Positions 2 to 53,220 of a stretch of DNA of 64,000 nt are shown here, in pieces (the first letter of the stretch is position 1; each line of letters starts with the position of its first letter). Source of the DNA: Chloroflexota bacterium (lineage in GTDB: Bacteria > Chloroflexota > Dehalococcoidia > DSGV01); NCBI GenBank assembly GCA_021787985.1, contig JAJYLG010000008.1, positions 2,821 through 66,820 of the forward strand. Reading direction: 5' to 3'. The notes beneath the pieces were generated by a model. It did not search any database, was not told the DNA's origin, and saw only the letters and a list, made by a program, of their open reading frames with translations. The position numbers were made by a program, and so were the translations under genes.

Positions 2-646
2 GCGGACCTCAAGTACGTGCGGGAGAAGGGCGACGAGCAGGACTTCTCCTATCTGCAGCCGGAAGGCAGGCAGCCGGACGCGGGATTCGGCACCAGCTTC
101 AAGGAGATCCTGGAGTACATCCACAGCACGATCTCGGAGATCAAGCGGGCCAACAAGCCGTTCATCGCCGCCGTGAAGGGGGTGGCCGCCGCCGGAGGGT
201 TCGGGCTGGCGATGGCGTGCGACCTCGTGTACGCGTCCGACGACGCCGCGTTCGAGTGGGCGTACCGCAAGACCGGCCTGACGGGCGCCGAGAGCTCGAC
301 CTTCTTTCTGCCGCGGCTCGTCGGCCTGCGCAAGGCCATGGAGCTCGTGCTGTTGAACCCCCGACTGACGGCGGCCCAGGCGCTGGAGCTCGGCCTGGTC
401 AACGCGGTCTTCTCTCGCGCGACCTTCGACGCCTCGGTGATGGCGGTAGCCGAGAAGCTGGCCGAGGGACCGACACGCGCGCTGGGCATCGCCAAGACCT
501 TGATCCACTCGGCGGTGGCCGGTGACCGCCTCGACTACCACCTGGACTTGGAGCTGGAGCACCTGGCCCGCATCGCGGAGACGAGGGAGTTCGCCGAGGG
601 GCTCGACGCGTTTCTCGAGAAGCGCGAGCCGAAGTTCGACAGCTAG
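2..646 (+). CDS. Enoyl-CoA hydratase/isomerase (crotonase) family protein, 5' partial; HypX-like Tyr/Glu signature
   Basis: The frame is open from the window edge (ADLKYVREK...). Crotonase motifs IAAVKGVAAAGGFGLAMACD, LPRLVG and C-terminal EGLDAFLEKREPKF are present. Confidence 0.85.
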   Translation, partial: ADLKYVREKGDEQDFSYLQPEGRQPDAGFGTSFKEILEYIHSTISEIKRANKPFIAAVKGVAAAGGFGLAMACDLVYASDDAAFEWAYRKTGLTGAESSTFFLPRLVGLRKAMELVLLNPRLTAAQALELGLVNAVFSRATFDASVMAVAEKLAEGPTRALGIAKTLIHSAVAGDRLDYHLDLELEHLARIAETREFAEGLDAFLEKREPKFDS

Positions 647-692: not shown

Positions 693-1787
693 ATGAAGCC
701 AGTGCGGCACGAGGCCGGGGGAAGCGAAAGCGGCGAGACACGGCAGCGAAGCCGGCTGTTTTTCGGCGACGAGCGAGTATCGATGGCGCACGGCAGCGGT
801 GGCCGGGCGAGCCACACGCTGGTCAACCGGCTCTTCCTCGAGCTCTTCCGCAATCCCCTGCTCGAGAAGCTGGATGACCAGGCCGTGTTCGCGCTGGACG
901 AGGACAGCGGTCCGCGACTCGCCCTCACCACCGATTCGTTCGTGATCCATCCGCTCTTCTTTCCGGGCGGCGACATCGGCAAGCTGGCGGTCCACGGCAC
1001 CATCAACGACCTCGCCATGTCCGGCGCACGTCCGCTGCACCTCTCGGCCGGCTTCATCCTCGAGGAGGGCTTGCCGCTCGGCGACCTGCAGCGCATCGCC
1101 GAGTCGATGGCCGAGGCCTGCGCCCGCTGCGGCGTGGCGATCGTGACCGGCGACACGAAAGTGGTGAACCGCGGCAAGGGCGATGGCGTCTTCATCAACA
1201 CGACGGGGATCGGAATCGTCCCAGATGGCGTGAGCATCTCCGCTTCCAACGCCCGGCCGGGTGACCGGGTGATCGTCAGCGGTCCCATCGGCGAGCACGG
1301 GGTCGCCATCATGATCGCCCGCGGTGGGCTGGACTTCGAGGCGGAGATCGCCAGCGACACGGCCGCGCTGCACTCGCTGGTGGGGACGATGCTCGCGGTG
1401 ACACCTCGCATCCACTGTTTGCGGGACCCGACGCGCGGCGGGGTGGCGACCGTGCTCAACGAGATCGCGGAGCGGTCGGAGGTAGGGATCGTCATCGACG
1501 AGGCCCGCGTCCCGGTCTCCGAGCCGGTCCGCAGCGCGTGCGAGGTGCTGGGCATCGACCCGCTCTACGTCGCCAACGAGGGCAAGCTGGTGGCGGTCGT
1601 GCCGGGCGACGTGGCCGAGGACGTCGTATCCGCCATGCGCCAATGCGATTGTGGGCTGGGACGGGAGGCAACCATCGTGGGTGAGGTGGTGGAAGAGCCG
1701 CGGCGGCGAGTGCTGCTGCGCACCGCGCTGGGGGGAACTCGCATCGTGGACATGCTCGTTGGCGACCCGCTCCCTCGCATCTGCTGA
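693..1787 (+). CDS. hypE: Hydrogenase maturation carbamoyl dehydratase HypE
   Basis: Motifs MAHGSGG, TTDSFVI.PLFFPGGDIGKLAVHGTINDL, GDTKVV and RDPTRGG, plus the diagnostic C-terminal PRIC. Start taken at ATG 693. Confidence 0.95.
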   Translation: MKPVRHEAGGSESGETRQRSRLFFGDERVSMAHGSGGRASHTLVNRLFLELFRNPLLEKLDDQAVFALDEDSGPRLALTTDSFVIHPLFFPGGDIGKLAVHGTINDLAMSGARPLHLSAGFILEEGLPLGDLQRIAESMAEACARCGVAIVTGDTKVVNRGKGDGVFINTTGIGIVPDGVSISASNARPGDRVIVSGPIGEHGVAIMIARGGLDFEAEIASDTAALHSLVGTMLAVTPRIHCLRDPTRGGVATVLNEIAERSEVGIVIDEARVPVSEPVRSACEVLGIDPLYVANEGKLVAVVPGDVAEDVVSAMRQCDCGLGREATIVGEVVEEPRRRVLLRTALGGTRIVDMLVGDPLPRIC

Positions 1788-1803: not shown

Positions 1804-2358
1804 GTGCTCAACGCATGTGGACCAGATGACCCTCGCGAGCCGCGGGTGCTCGTCGCCGGCATGGGGACCGTCCTGCGGAAGGACGACGGGTTCGGCGTGG
1901 CGGTGGTCCGTCACCTGATGGAGACCTGGCGGCCACGTCCCGCGAACGTCACGCTGGTCGACTGCGGGGCGGCTGGGATCAGCCTCGTGCAGGAGCTTCT
2001 GGACGGATACGACGCCCTGATCGTGGTGGACGCGGTGCGGCGCCACGGGCGTCCGGGAACGATCTACGTGCTGGAGCCGCGGGTCCAAGCGCTGATGGAG
2101 CGGGATGATTCCCTGCGCCAAGCGTCTCTCACGGACGCCCATCTGATGGAGCCGGGCCAGGTGTTCGCCGTCGCACACGGTCTGGGTGTGTTGCCGCCGT
2201 ACGTGCGCGTGGTGGGCTGCGAACCGGCCGAGGTCGATGAGGCCGAGATCGGCCTGTCGGCCAGCCTGCAGCACGCGCTCCGCCCGGCGGCGCACCGCGT
2301 CCGCGCGCTGGCGGAGGAGCTGGTCGCGCCGCCGCGGAGCGGTTCGTCCTCGGAGTAG
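1804..2358 (+). CDS. Hydrogenase maturation endopeptidase (HyaD/HybD family)
   Basis: RVLVAGMGTVLRKDDGFG, IVVDAV..G.PGTIY, DAH and VVGCEP motifs. The start (GTG 1804) is uncertain. Confidence 0.85.
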   Translation: MLNACGPDDPREPRVLVAGMGTVLRKDDGFGVAVVRHLMETWRPRPANVTLVDCGAAGISLVQELLDGYDALIVVDAVRRHGRPGTIYVLEPRVQALMERDDSLRQASLTDAHLMEPGQVFAVAHGLGVLPPYVRVVGCEPAEVDEAEIGLSASLQHALRPAAHRVRALAEELVAPPRSGSSSE

Positions 2359-3428: not shown

Positions 3429-5303
3429 CTATTCTTCCTCCAAGAGGCAGGCGCAGGTGTTGACCTCGCGGACGATCGCCCTATCGCCGGCAAAGACGTG
3501 GGTGGTGCAGGGCATGCACGGGTCGAAGCTGCGGATGGCACGCAGGATGTCGATCCCCTTGAAATCCTCCTGGCGGTCGAACCGCTCGATGACCGGCGTG
3601 CTGAGCACCGCTTCCTCGTAGGGTCCCGGATTCCCCCAGGGGTCCCGCGGCGAGGCGTTCAGGGTGGACGGGGTGATGATCTGGTAGTTGGTCACCACTC
3701 CCTTGTCCATGACGAGATGGTGGGTGAGGTAGCCGCGGCCGGCGCCCCAGAATCCGGCGCCGAGCCGCTGGTCGTTGGGCACGCGGTAGTCACGGCTTAC
3801 GGCAACGTCGCCGCGCTTCATCAGATCGTACGCCGCCATGAGGTTGCTGAGCGCCACCAGTGCCGTGTAGGCCACGGCGTACGCCCGCGCGCGGTTGCGC
3901 TCGATGGCATTCCACTCGTCCGGGATGTGCCACTCGAGCTCCGTCTCCGGCAGCCTGCCCTTCGGCACGACCATCTTGAGACTGTGGCCGGTGGACTCGA
4001 TGAACGGGTTCGCCGGCAGTTTCTGAGCCGCGGCCGTGGTCCACATCCGCACGTACACGCCGGCCTCCACCGCCACCCGGTCCCAGCGCGGCGCCGTGTC
4101 CCAGGTGTACTTCTCCTTCCAGCTCCGGCCGACGGGCTTCGGTCGTGTCTCCTTGTTCCACGGATGGAACGGGCTGAGCGGGTATCCGGCGGGATCCGTC
4201 GGGAATTTCTGCCCGCTCCAGTCTTCGTAATAGGAGTGCTCGACGAACTCCTCGAGGCCCGCGTTCATGGCGTGAAGGTTCGTCGTGACCAGCTCGCCGT
4301 CGCGCACGACGCCGGGGGTGTTCCATCGTCGCTCACCCCACTGGGCCGCGTGTTCGTAGACCGCGTCGTATGCCTCGTGGTGGTCCCAGATCCCGGCGTC
4401 GATCAGGTTCTTCGGTCGTGCGCCCACCTGGCGAAAGCGCGGCTCGACCGCGTAGAGGAAGTCGTACACGTCGTCCCACAGGGGCGCGACCTTCTTGGCG
4501 TAGTCGAGGATGTCGAACAGGCGGGACTGGTACTCGTTGAAGACGCGAAACGATATTGTCGTGCTGATGCCGCCGGGCACGATCGTCTGGGGGTGTGGGT
4601 ACTTGCCCCACACCAGCACCGTCATCTCCCGGGCCTTACGCGTGATCTCGAGCGCTTCCAGGTATAGGGAGCCGCTCAGCGGGTTGAGCGCCGCCATGAT
4701 GTCACCGATCGTGCCGAATCCGTGCACGGCGGCGTGCGGCGCGGCGGTGTGCTCGGCGCGCTCCCAGATCTCGGGGTTAGTGGCGCGAATCGCGGACTCG
4801 GAGTAGTCCGGTCCGCCGAGCAGGAAGAGGTGCAACGGGTTGTCGTAGAGGAACTCGGCCGTCTGCCCGAGATTGCGCACGACGATGCCCATCGGCGGCG
4901 GCTGCACACCGAAGGCCATCTCGATCGCCTCTGCCGAGCAGTTGGCGTGGACCCCACCGCAGACGCCGCACGCGCGGCTGCTGATGAAGATCGCGTCCCG
5001 CGGATCGCGCCCCTTGAGGATGACCTCGTAGCCGCGGAATAGGGTCGCCATCGCGTGCGCGTCGAGCACACGGCCCTCGTTCAGGTCGACGACCGCGTGG
5101 AACGCCAGGGCGCCGGCCACGCGCGTCACCGGGTCGATGCTCACCTCCTGGATGTGGCCGTTGCGGCGCAGCAACTCCTCGATGCGTTCCTGCTGGGTCG
5201 CCACCGTTGTCGTCGCGCGAACTCCATATGGGTCGGCGACGTTGGCCTTGAGGCGTGCTCTGCCGGACTCGTCGAACTCAATCGGCAGGTTCTTGAAGCA
5301 CAT
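3429..5303 (-). CDS. hylL: [NiFe]-hydrogenase large subunit, group 1 (probably 1l/Hyl)
   Basis: L1 motif SRACGVCGGVH, L2 motif DPCMPCTTH followed by a cleavable C-terminal extension, and a GGAGGAG RBS. The subgroup and symbol are inferred from gene architecture. Confidence 0.9.
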   Translation of the reverse strand: MCFKNLPIEFDESGRARLKANVADPYGVRATTTVATQQERIEELLRRNGHIQEVSIDPVTRVAGALAFHAVVDLNEGRVLDAHAMATLFRGYEVILKGRDPRDAIFISSRACGVCGGVHANCSAEAIEMAFGVQPPPMGIVVRNLGQTAEFLYDNPLHLFLLGGPDYSESAIRATNPEIWERAEHTAAPHAAVHGFGTIGDIMAALNPLSGSLYLEALEITRKAREMTVLVWGKYPHPQTIVPGGISTTISFRVFNEYQSRLFDILDYAKKVAPLWDDVYDFLYAVEPRFRQVGARPKNLIDAGIWDHHEAYDAVYEHAAQWGERRWNTPGVVRDGELVTTNLHAMNAGLEEFVEHSYYEDWSGQKFPTDPAGYPLSPFHPWNKETRPKPVGRSWKEKYTWDTAPRWDRVAVEAGVYVRMWTTAAAQKLPANPFIESTGHSLKMVVPKGRLPETELEWHIPDEWNAIERNRARAYAVAYTALVALSNLMAAYDLMKRGDVAVSRDYRVPNDQRLGAGFWGAGRGYLTHHLVMDKGVVTNYQIITPSTLNASPRDPWGNPGPYEEAVLSTPVIERFDRQEDFKGIDILRAIRSFDPCMPCTTHVFAGDRAIVREVNTCACLLEEE

Positions 5304-6588: not shown

Positions 6589-7830
6589 CTACTCCGGCTT
6601 GGCGGCCGTGCCGTGACGCTGGCGCCGGTTGTAGAGGAACTCCAGCGTCCGGTCCACCACGGGCAGCTCGTACTCGGCGCCCCAGCCGCTGGGGATGCGC
6701 TTCTCCCGGTCCCAGCGGGTCGAGTGATTGCGGTCTCGCTGGGTCACTCTGCGAAGCGCGCGCACCAGCGCCCCGCCGGTCTTCGAGATGCTGCTGGACA
6801 CGAGGACGCCCGGTGCAGCCTTGTAGAAGGGCGCGAACTTGTCCGGGAAGCCCGGCATGGTGCAGCCGATGCAGACGCCCCCCGCGTGCATGCAGCCGCC
6901 GACGCCGTTGATGGCGCCTCGTGAGGTGATGTTGCAGTTCACCACGGGGCCCCAGCAGCCGATCTCGACCAGGCACTCGCGGTCGCCGGGGGAGTCGGCG
7001 AAGGTGCCCTCCTCGTAGTAGCCCGCGCGATTGCACTGGCGGTGGACCGTCTCGCTGAAGAGCCAGGCTGGTCGTCCCAGCTCGTCGAACTCCGGCACCG
7101 GTCCGAGGCCCTGCAAGAACAGCAGCACGGCGGCGACCGTCTCCGTGAAGTTGTCTCCGACCGGCGCGCAGCCCGGGATGTTGACGACCGGCAGGCCGAG
7201 CGCGCTGCGATACTCGGGTCCCAAGAAGTCCATCACACCCATCGCGCCCGTGGGATTGTGGTAGGCGGCGGGGATGCCGCCCCACGTGGCGCAGGTGCCG
7301 ATGGCGATGACCGCCGCCGCGCCCGGGGCCATGCGCTTGAGCCACGTCGCCGACGGCACGGCGCGGGCTTCACCTCGTGCCTCGTCGAGCTCCTCGCCCA
7401 CCGCCGACCAGTAGCCCTCACCGGCTCGCGCCTCGTCGGCAACCGAACCCTCGTAGACGACTACATAGGGGACGCCCAGCGTGCCTTCCGCCGCGCTGCG
7501 TGCGGCCCGCATGAACGGCTCGCCTGCCTCGACGTTGATCGCCGTGTGATGGAGGAAAACCTGCGGCAGCCCCGGCAACGTGCCCAGCAGCAGGTCCTCG
7601 ACGCGCGGCGCGGTCGCCCCGAGGACCGCGATGCTGCATCCGTCGCAGCTCATCCCCGCCAGCCAGAAAACGTGGACGGCGGTGTACGGACCGAGCAGGC
7701 TATCCTTGCCAAGCCGCTCCCGCGCCTGCCGCGCGATCTCCTCGGTGGTCGCGCCGGCAATGTTGCCGACCATCCCCATGCCGCGGCCCGGTGCGACCCC
7801 GACGGACGGTTTCTCCGTGGTCACCATCAC
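6589..7830 (-). CDS. hylS: [NiFe]-hydrogenase small subunit without a Tat signal
   Basis: Fe-S ligand motifs SCDGCS, GTCATWGG, PGCAP, HRQC, CL..IGC.GP..NC and GGC...GGVCIGC..PGFPD. RBS GAGGAGG. No RRxFLK motif. Confidence 0.9.
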   Translation of the reverse strand: MMVTTEKPSVGVAPGRGMGMVGNIAGATTEEIARQARERLGKDSLLGPYTAVHVFWLAGMSCDGCSIAVLGATAPRVEDLLLGTLPGLPQVFLHHTAINVEAGEPFMRAARSAAEGTLGVPYVVVYEGSVADEARAGEGYWSAVGEELDEARGEARAVPSATWLKRMAPGAAAVIAIGTCATWGGIPAAYHNPTGAMGVMDFLGPEYRSALGLPVVNIPGCAPVGDNFTETVAAVLLFLQGLGPVPEFDELGRPAWLFSETVHRQCNRAGYYEEGTFADSPGDRECLVEIGCWGPVVNCNITSRGAINGVGGCMHAGGVCIGCTMPGFPDKFAPFYKAAPGVLVSSSISKTGGALVRALRRVTQRDRNHSTRWDREKRIPSGWGAEYELPVVDRTLEFLYNRRQRHGTAAKPE

Positions 7831-51421: not shown

Positions 51422-52261
51422 ATGTCGCGACCGGTCATCACGTTGCTTACCGACTTCGGGACGCGTGACGCCTACGTCGCGGCCATGCGCGGCGTCCTGC
51501 TGGCCCTGGCGCCGGAGTCGCTGCCGGTGGACATCACCCACCACGTCCCGCCGCAGGATGTGCTCGTCGGCTCGCTGGTCGCGGCGCAGGCGTGGCCGTA
51601 TTTCCCGCAGGGCTCCGTCCACGTAGCGGTGGTCGACCCGGGCGTCGGCACCGCGCGCGCTTCGCTGGCGGTCGAAGCCGGTGGCTCGTGGTTCGTCGGT
51701 CCAGACAACGGCCTGCTCTCGCCCGCCGTGCCGGTGGGCTCGCGGCCGCAGGGGGACCCGACCGTCGCGGCCGTCTGTCCGCTGCCCGAGGGTGTCCGCC
51801 TGTGGCGGATCGATCACGGGCGGCTGTCCCCCGGACGGCCGGTGAGCTCGACGTTCCAGGGACGTGATGTCTTCGCGCCCGCGGCGGCCCGACTGGCACG
51901 CGGCGAACCGGCGGACGCCTTCGCCGCGCCGGCCGACCGACTGTGGTGCTTCCCCGTGCCACAGGCGCGGCGCAGCGTGCGCGGCGTCCTCTCCGGGGTG
52001 GTCCTCTACATCGACCACTTCGGGAACGCGGTCACCAGCATCCGGGAGGAGCAGCTCGTCGCAGGGCTCACCGTCGAGGCGCTGGCGCGTGACCTGGGTG
52101 CGCCGGTGCGCACCTTCGGCGACCTGCACCCCGGGCAGCCGGGGGCGCTGGTCGGCAGCGCCGGCTTCCTCGAAGTGGTCATGCGGGACGGGAGCGCCGC
52201 CGCGGCCCTCGGCATCGGCCGCGGCGACGTGGTCGTCTGCCGGCCGCTGGAGCGGCGATGA
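51422..52261 (+). CDS. SAM hydrolase/halogenase (DUF62) family protein
   Basis: LLTDFG..D, VVDPGVGT.R, GPDNG, STFQGRDVF and YIDHFGN. Confidence 0.88.
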   Translation: MSRPVITLLTDFGTRDAYVAAMRGVLLALAPESLPVDITHHVPPQDVLVGSLVAAQAWPYFPQGSVHVAVVDPGVGTARASLAVEAGGSWFVGPDNGLLSPAVPVGSRPQGDPTVAAVCPLPEGVRLWRIDHGRLSPGRPVSSTFQGRDVFAPAAARLARGEPADAFAAPADRLWCFPVPQARRSVRGVLSGVVLYIDHFGNAVTSIREEQLVAGLTVEALARDLGAPVRTFGDLHPGQPGALVGSAGFLEVVMRDGSAAAALGIGRGDVVVCRPLERR

Positions 52262-53220
52262 CGCGCGTCGTCTTCATGGGCTCCGACCCGTTTTCGCTCC
52301 CCACGTTGCGCGCGCTGCTGGAGTCCGGCTATGAGGTCGTGGCGGCGTATACGCAGCCGTCCAAGCCCGCGGGCCGTGGGCGACGCTCGCTGCCCACGCC
52401 CGTACAGGCTGAGGCCGAGCTTCAGGGGCTGCCCGTCCGCACGCCGGTGACGCTGCGCGACGGCGCCGAGGTGGCGGCGCTGCGTGCGCTGGCCCCCGAC
52501 CTCATCGTCGTCGCCGCCTACGGCCAGATCCTCCGTCCGGCCGTGCTCCACCTGCCGCGCCACGGCTGCATCAACGTGCACGCCTCGCTGCTACCGCGCT
52601 GGCGCGGGGCGGCGCCGGTGGCCGCCGCTATCGCCGCAGGCGATGAGGAGACGGGCGTCTCGATCATGCTGATGGATCCGGGTCTGGACACTGGCCCGGT
52701 GCTCGCGCAGCGCTCCGAGCGTATCCTGCCGGACGACACGACCGCCTCAGTGTCGGAGCGACTGGCAAGGCTTGGTGGTGCGCTACTGATGGAAGTCTTG
52801 CCGGGCTGGCTCAAGGGGGAGCTCGCACCACGGCCGCAGGACGACGCGCGCGCCACGCATGCGCCGCGGCTCAGCCGTGGGGACGGCGAGCTCGACCTGG
52901 CGCGCCCGGCGGCCGAGCTCGAGCGGGCGGTGCGAGCGCTCCACCCGTGGCCGGGCGCGTGGCTCCGGTACGATGGGATCGGGCTGCGGGTGTTGCGCGC
53001 CCTGGCGATTGACGGCTCGGCCGACCCGGGCGCGGTGGTCACGCCGGCGCCGGCAGGGGGGCGGCTGGCGGCGTTTGCGGTCGGGACGGGCAGCGGGTTG
53101 CTGGTGCCGCTCCAGGTGCAGCGTGAGGGACGCAGGCCCGCGACCGCGGCCGAGTGGGCGCGTGGCGAGCGGGCGTTCTCGTCGCTGCGCTTCCAGCCTG
53201 GGCCCGGAAAGGATGCGTGA
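52258..53220 (+). CDS. fmt: Methionyl-tRNA formyltransferase
   Basis: VVFMGS, TQP.KPAGRG, VAAYG.IL and NVHASLLPRWRGAAP. Confidence 0.95.
   Translation: MTRVVFMGSDPFSLPTLRALLESGYEVVAAYTQPSKPAGRGRRSLPTPVQAEAELQGLPVRTPVTLRDGAEVAALRALAPDLIVVAAYGQILRPAVLHLPRHGCINVHASLLPRWRGAAPVAAAIAAGDEETGVSIMLMDPGLDTGPVLAQRSERILPDDTTASVSERLARLGGALLMEVLPGWLKGELAPRPQDDARATHAPRLSRGDGELDLARPAAELERAVRALHPWPGAWLRYDGIGLRVLRALAIDGSADPGAVVTPAPAGGRLAAFAVGTGSGLLVPLQVQREGRRPATAAEWARGERAFSSLRFQPGPGKDA

Follow-up and report, generated by a model that had tools for sequence, protein, structure and literature searches.

The window analysed here, a stretch of DNA of 64,000 nucleotides (G000:C152:2821-66820 in the source genome), opens inside a crotonase gene that is read in frame 2 of the plus strand from base 2 to the stop codon at 644–646. 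The translated fragment was attributed to the Pfam family ECH_1 (E = 2.4e-38, 132 bits, cut-off 27). The original prediction, made from the window alone, had placed the N-terminus of the protein outside it, and this part was recovered from the contig, which was available for a further 2.8 kb upstream (locus L004). The full gene, designated hyp-ECH, is located at G000:C152:2636-3466 and encodes a protein of 275 aa; its ATG start codon at 2636 lies 185 bases upstream of the window.

The genes at this locus follow the order hypF-hypC-hypD-ECH-hypE-protease, and hypF is cut by the contig end. The crotonase gene is separated by 25 bp from the stop codon of hypD and, as had been predicted, by 46 bp from the next gene on the same strand, which starts with an ATG at 693 and carries the AIRS and AIRS_C domains (Table 1). 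The protein encoded by this hypE shares 43–58% identity with the HypE proteins of all the related loci. The upstream sequence had been proposed as the place to look for a formyltransferase; no formyltransferase domain or gene was found in the 2.8 kb upstream of the crotonase or fused to it. ECH_1 is the sole domain of the protein, which thus stands alone between HypD and HypE. Among solved structures, the one nearest to the hydrogenase large subunit of the window was 5AA5 (E = 3e-152), an O2-insensitive R. eutropha enzyme that belongs to group 1h. The hyp-ECH sequence was found only in the source DNA metagenome, obtained from mine drainage, and no match was detected in RNA runs.

Table 1. Features of the hyp-ECH locus in the window
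Feature	Position in the window	Strand	Basis or remarks
hyp-ECH (P0001), 3' three-quarters, codons 62–275 and stop codon	1..646	+	ORF, ECH_1
AAAGGFGLA, residues 124–132, second oxyanion-hole motif	185..211	+	Invariant residues A124–G128 and G130
Tyr150 codon TAC	263..265	+	Position of canonical hydratase Glu164; HypX Tyr439 (C. necator) / Tyr416 (A. aeolicus)
Glu159 codon GAG	290..292	+	Equivalent of HypX Glu449/Glu426; the preceding Ala158 is at the position of the PaaG catalytic Asp
hypE, carbamoyl dehydratase of CN-ligand synthesis	693..1787	+	Pfam AIRS and AIRS_C
Hydrogenase maturation endopeptidase, HycI/HupD type; start approximate	1804..2358	+	Pfam HycI, E = 3e-16
[NiFe]-hydrogenase large subunit, served by this hyp cluster	3429..5303	-	Pfam NiFeSe_Hases
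[NiFe]-hydrogenase small subunit	6589..7830	-	Pfam Oxidored_q6 and NiFe_hyd_SSU_C

The profile score, the fold of the AlphaFold 2 (AF2) model and the presence of two oxyanion-hole motifs place hyp-ECH in the crotonase superfamily (Pfam ECH_1, PF00378). Automatic annotation describes the protein as 2-(1,2-epoxy-1,2-dihydrophenyl)acetyl-CoA isomerase, and many of its relatives are likewise labelled PaaG by automatic annotation, including that of JGI. According to this annotation, it would be an ordinary PaaG-like or beta-oxidation crotonase located beside hypE by chance. The best NCBIfam matches agree with such a reading, being generic ECH, 'oxepin-CoA hydrolase alt' and PaaG, and the PDB matches are also of the PaaG/ECH type (E = 1e-37 to 3e-39). 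The best of them were PaaG (4FZW_C, 3HRX, 6SL9) and GK2038 (2EJ5), with a TM score of ~0.82 and 33–34% identity, and these proteins have the same length and C-terminal helical domain as hyp-ECH. A Foldseek search with the AF2 model returned only ECH/PaaG crotonases among its top 50 matches (TM 0.8–0.84), and HypX was absent from them. The pLDDT of the model was 80.6; the loop of residues 152–162, which holds Glu159, scored below 50, and the model is unreliable for active-site geometry.

However, all the NCBIfam scores were far below the curated cut-offs; for PaaG (TIGR02280), the score was 174.4 against a cut-off of 345.15. PaaG is a 1,2-epoxyphenylacetyl-CoA isomerase with the catalytic residue Asp136, which aligns with Ala158 of hyp-ECH, the acid being found one residue later, at Glu159. 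The protein does not fit a canonical enoyl-CoA hydratase (ECHS1/crotonase) either: the positions of the hydratase residues Glu144 and Glu164 (motifs GGGCE and QPE) are occupied by Gly130 and Tyr150, while the canonical paralogues of the same genome have glutamate at both. Unlike PaaG, hyp-ECH contains ~20 extra residues at positions 70–95 with an invariant FKEILEYIHSTISEI helix, and it is always found in a hyp context and never in a paa one.

Relatives of hyp-ECH form a sharply bounded family, with an identity of 58–76% across at least five phyla followed by a drop to 34% or less. In a one-genome-per-species collection, 26 loci with a relative at 58–71% identity were found, two of which are probably contig-end halves of one gene, and the next best matches did not exceed 34%. 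A database search that included metagenomes revealed thousands of proteins at 67–76% identity from Gemmatimonadota, Acidobacteriota and 'Deltaproteobacteria' MAGs. The carriers also include Nitrospiria, Melainabacteria, Acidiferrales, Thermoanaerobaculia and Gemmatimonadales. Co-occurrence of the orthologues with hyp genes, which the original prediction had put forward as a check, was complete: a tblastn search with Hyp proteins showed that all 26 family loci lie in hyp clusters, compared with none of 24 loci of distant crotonases, and all four of the metagenome contexts (4/4) were also inside hyp clusters. Two locus orders were observed, namely hypC-hypD-[FT]-ECH-hypE and hypD-hypE-[FT]-ECH-hypB, where FT is a formyltransferase gene. 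No paa or fatty-acid genes were found beside the family loci. This synteny effectively refutes the reading of hyp-ECH as an ordinary crotonase, which we regard as highly improbable.

In its own phylum, the orthologue was present in one of 301 sampled genomes, that is, in the source genome alone, which suggests that the crotonase gene travels horizontally with the hyp genes. The hyp/hydrogenase island of the source genome was probably acquired in this way. A compact four-gene unit, hypC-hypD-ECH-hypE, was observed in a Melainabacteria MAG (L011:4679-8069) between unrelated flanking genes (TPR, cytidylyltransferase, patatin), and therefore the crotonase moves with the HypCDE core alone. Two contigs (L027 and L031) of one Thermoanaerobaculia MAG, DASUSN01, each contain a full hypF-C-D-E-FT-ECH-hypB cluster; the hyp/FT/ECH module is thus duplicated in this genome or bin. 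At the Acidiferrales locus, the large subunit encoded at L008:1156-2742 is periplasmic, of group 1 and Desulfovibrio-like (1H2A, E = 2e-162), and it is accompanied by cytochrome b. The family serves different hydrogenase classes, since this enzyme is Desulfovibrio-like whereas the large subunit of the window is 5AA5-like.

The original prediction had pointed to an AY...GAE...LPRLVG segment with a Tyr and a Glu of the HypX type, and both codons were found as described (Table 1), within FEWAYRKTGLTGAESSTFFLPRLVG. All 144 family members compared retain Tyr150 and Glu159, and the whole FEWAY.KTGLTGAESST block and the oxyanion-hole motifs FCSGADL and AAAGGFG are likewise invariant. Among ~60 crotonase paralogues from the source genome and the distant loci, the pair occurs only in hyp-ECH and HypX. 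An exhaustive search of 1.8 billion representatives gave a similar result: among the best 150, each of the 26 sequences with the Tyr/Glu pair also bears the family motif. The use of the Tyr as a HypX-like marker did not survive this comparison. The nearest other crotonases among these 150 representatives (38–45% identical) mostly have an AY...PDG form, with Tyr, Asp158 and Gly159; the Tyr is therefore inherited from a wider crotonase group and is not diagnostic alone, so that only Glu159 and Ala158 are distinctive. The change that defines the family is the replacement of Asp158 by Ala together with Glu159, which corresponds to the HypX register (GAE vs. GSE).

The AY...PDG crotonases are PRK05981-like or oxepin_alt-like and share with hyp-ECH the Tyr at position 150 and the LPRxVG helix. 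Unlike hyp-ECH, they have Asp158-Gly159 and no FEW motif, and P0255, a near relative that lacks the acid and the only one with its context read, is not hyp-linked. The nearest paralogue of hyp-ECH in its own genome (208 bits with the family HMM) is a crotonase of this type; it is encoded outside the window, on the minus strand (C11:25595-26404), and contains FTMAYTRAGLAPDGSSTYFLPRIVG. Its AY...PDG form is a probable ancestral state of the Ala158/Glu159 form.

HypX, or HoxX (C. necator pHG1, R. leguminosarum, A. aeolicus; PDB 6J0P and related entries), is the CO-ligand synthase that depends on N10-formyl-THF and acts in the aerobic maturation of [NiFe]-hydrogenases. Tyr439/Glu449 of the C. necator protein and Tyr416/Glu426 of the A. 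aeolicus protein were proposed as the decarbonylation residues, and the mutants are HypX-minus (PMC6802093). In C. necator HypX (P0121, pHG1), the two residues are located within NPHYKNMGNLYGSEYWTYLLPQRVG. Alignment with HypX and PaaG had been suggested as a way to check the pair. A BLASTP comparison of hyp-ECH with HypX (28% identity, E = 2e-15) and a profile–profile alignment using hhalign (probability 99.1%, E = 1e-18, 233 columns, one gap between the two residues) both matched Tyr150 with Tyr439 and Glu159 with Glu449. Like HypX, hyp-ECH is encoded in a hyp cluster beside hypD and hypE, has the crotonase fold with both oxyanion-hole motifs and has lost both hydratase glutamates. Fused HypX was found in none of the 10 genomes tested that carry hyp-ECH, and in most of these genomes hyp-ECH matched the HypX C-domain better than any of the numerous paralogues did.

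At the same time, hyp-ECH is a separate protein of 275 aa and not the C-terminal half of a fusion of ~570–600 aa; its identity to the HypX C-domain is only 27–28%, it is much closer to PaaG/ECH proteins, and it keeps the normal C-terminal helices of trimeric or hexameric crotonases. In the maximum likelihood tree (LG+C20), eight HypX C-domains, that of A. aeolicus included, joined the hyp-ECH family, with support of 100/97 for the joint clade and 97/92 for a position of the HypX domains inside it. The HypX stem was 5.1 substitutions per site long, and in AU tests a tree with HypX placed outside this clade was not rejected (p = 0.22), nor was the monophyly of hyp-ECH without HypX (p = 0.58). 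From these comparisons, hyp-ECH appears to be an analogue of HypX rather than its orthologue, outside the HypX family as defined by the fusion, and it may represent the kind of protein from which the HypX C-domain arose. The proposal of a split or stand-alone HypX-type decarbonylase was supported: the protein is stand-alone and hyp-linked, and its Tyr/Glu pair aligns with that of HypX. It needs two corrections, namely that the Tyr is not diagnostic and that the protein is not a piece of HypX and is closer to PaaG/ECH.

The genomic evidence, together with the published work on HypX, makes it moderately probable that hyp-ECH is a dedicated [NiFe]-hydrogenase maturation enzyme, likely a formyl-CoA decarbonylase that makes the CO ligand. 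The oxyanion hole of the one-domain crotonase would bind a C1-acyl-CoA, most probably formyl-CoA, and polarise the thioester. Tyr150 and Glu159 would then act as in HypX to give CO and CoA-SH, and the iron on HypC-HypD would take up this CO as the carbonyl ligand of the Fe(CN)2CO unit. HypX itself is constitutively loaded with CoA and associates with HypC and HypD in a 1:1:1 complex (PMC6802093). This binding, and the embedding of the crotonase gene in hypC-hypD-ECH-hypE, provide an interaction precedent for the decarbonylase reading. The same facts would also suit a structural role at HypC-HypD, non-catalytic or based on CoA binding, in which a protein that has kept the crotonase fold would, for example, scaffold or protect the Fe(CN)2CO intermediate and not turn over a thioester. 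Such a role is considered improbable, because the oxyanion-hole motifs and the Tyr/Glu pair remain invariant at ~65–75% overall identity across phyla, which is the conservation pattern of an active enzyme, and because the formyltransferase neighbour described below implies a flow of substrate.

Like the fused HypX, most relatives of hyp-ECH have a formyl-THF-type transferase encoded immediately alongside. Its gene lies directly upstream of the crotonase gene in 19 of the 26 loci, often overlapping it; 18 of these loci were found using tblastn, and in the remaining one (L013) the contig end truncates the formyltransferase. This partner is usually PurN-like (TIGR00639, E = 2e-22) and not similar to the N-domain of HypX (BLASTP against HypX, E = 0.1), and it has a conserved C-terminal motif of its own, AYAYAQREWMM. 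A different arrangement was found at L060:224-2968, where hypE is followed by a gene for a 291-aa protein with Formyl_trans_N and Formyl_trans_C domains and then by P0249, a divergent hyp-ECH member (45% identical, motif FEWAYWKTALTSAEGS). The L060 transferase shows 28% identity to HypX-N (E = 8e-13) and belongs to the Fmt/FDH type, as does the HypX N-domain itself. This locus represents a second kind of split arrangement in which an Fmt-type transferase replaces the PurN-type one. Recruitment to this place has therefore involved two formyl-THF-type transferases that are not related to each other.

The formyltransferases of five Thermoanaerobaculia loci (L021, L024, L025, L027 and L028) are 180–189 aa long and lack ~35–70 residues of the N-terminal subdomain compared with the versions of 260–300 aa, and some Thermoanaerobaculia formyltransferases also lack an 8-residue loop after NVHDSDL. 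In the L033 formyltransferase, the catalytic N-x-H motif reads S-x-R. A search for fused transferase–crotonase proteins in the long library representatives yielded ECH domains only, and the long sequences are therefore probably miscalled ORFs.

In a two-protein system, the upstream formyltransferase presumably makes formyl-CoA from N10-formyl-THF, and the pair would be the counterpart of the fused HypX. In HypX, the tethered CoA swings between the two domains within one cavity. Such an internal transfer is impossible in the stand-alone form, and two separate proteins would have to form a complex or rely on free formyl-CoA. The source genome differs further from the HypX systems in that no partner was found in it: orthologues of both hyp-linked transferases were absent genome-wide from the source genome and six other genomes, one of which has a contig of 4 Mb, while the positive controls gave E values of 1e-72 to 1e-89. 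Formyl-CoA must therefore come from elsewhere in these seven genomes, and the existence of such crotonase-only genomes suggests that formyl-CoA can be sufficient when it is free or supplied in some other way. A search for formyl-CoA transferase Frc (TIGR03253) gave no match above the cut-off in any of them. No other conserved neighbours were found at the crotonase-only loci, where only unrelated genes were present (methyltransferase, VIT1, GGDEF, TPR, patatin).

The HMM of the PurN-like family detected only three sequences in the source genome: Fmt, at window 52258-53220, and two ORFs, one of them PurN-like (C10) and the other Fmt-like (C134). The first of the three, on the plus strand, is the sole formyltransferase in the window; it is an ordinary methionyl-tRNA formyltransferase, and it accounts for the weak matches of both hyp-linked transferase types. 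The sequence outside the window at C134:2690-3604, on the minus strand, encodes a stand-alone Fmt/FDH-N-type formyltransferase of 305 aa (IQYHPSLLPRHRG...GIDTGP), and it adjoins an M20 peptidase gene and not hyp genes. It was found to be 41% identical to the hyp-linked transferase of L060 (E = 1e-65) and was the best match to the HypX N-domain in its own genome. It is a possible supplier of formyl-CoA in trans in the source genome. A transferase of the C134 type was also considered as a general explanation of the crotonase-only genomes and was rejected, since the other six have only Fmt-level matches; in the absence of a complementary pattern there, the C134 transferase is a lead for the source genome only.

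The supply of substrate in the seven genomes, with neither a dedicated formyltransferase nor a bona fide Frc, counts against the decarbonylase reading. So do the closer overall similarity to PaaG/ECH crotonases, the presence of Tyr150 in the nearest non-hyp crotonases, the AU result for HypX and the Desulfovibrio-like hydrogenases of some clusters. The lack of a formyl-CoA-making partner in the seven genomes also speaks for hyp-ECH as a hyp-dedicated crotonase with other chemistry: it could act on a different small acyl-CoA, pass a C1 unit from CoA to the HypCD iron without free CO, or hydrolyse or proof-read a thioester side-product. The strict hyp linkage shows a role in maturation and not the reaction itself, the family arose from the AY...PDG crotonases, a group without an assigned function, and the invariant residues Glu147 and Trp148 of the FEW motif have no counterpart in HypX. 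However, the two residues that HypX needs stand in exactly the same register in hyp-ECH, and in some three-quarters of the species the gene immediately upstream, which often overlaps the crotonase gene, encodes a formyltransferase. The presence of two unrelated formyltransferase types at that place points specifically to a formyl group being processed, and other chemistry is therefore regarded as rather unlikely.

No enzyme other than HypX is known to synthesise the CO ligand of [NiFe]-hydrogenases, and all descriptions of HypX concern a fusion of two domains, for the most part from Proteobacteria and Aquificae. Full-text searches of the literature library did not reveal a stand-alone or split HypX, and in the texts found HypX is treated only as a two-domain protein. 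The hyp-ECH family thus appears to be undescribed; it would be a HypX-type CO-ligand route in a one-protein or two-protein form. Classical HypX is associated with O2-tolerant hydrogenases, whereas some hyp-ECH clusters encode the Desulfovibrio-like group 1 hydrogenases with cytochrome b mentioned above. A broader scenario can be put forward tentatively, as possible though doubtful. In many soil and sediment phyla and groups (Acidobacteriota, Gemmatimonadota, Nitrospirota, Melainabacteria and the mine-drainage source bacterium), a minimal crotonase of one domain may produce the CO ligand from formyl-CoA that is free or supplied in another way. The formyltransferase would then be an optional component that was repeatedly gained, swapped (PurN-type or Fmt-type) and lost, and the fused HypX would be a late and fast-evolving derivative. 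Being found also in clusters for Desulfovibrio-like group 1 hydrogenases, the family could, on this view, belong to the long-sought carbonyl-ligand route that does not depend on HypX.

Abundant uncultured soil phyla without HypX carry the hyp-ECH gene in their hyp operons. If its product is a formyl-CoA decarbonylase, this would explain the maturation of hydrogenases in those trace-gas oxidisers that carry it. The decarbonylase step would be separated from formyl transfer, and each of them could be tested alone, while the crotonase-only genomes would point to a source of formyl-CoA besides a dedicated formyl-THF transferase. In this case, hyp-ECH would also be a compact part for the heterologous production of O2-tolerant hydrogenases.
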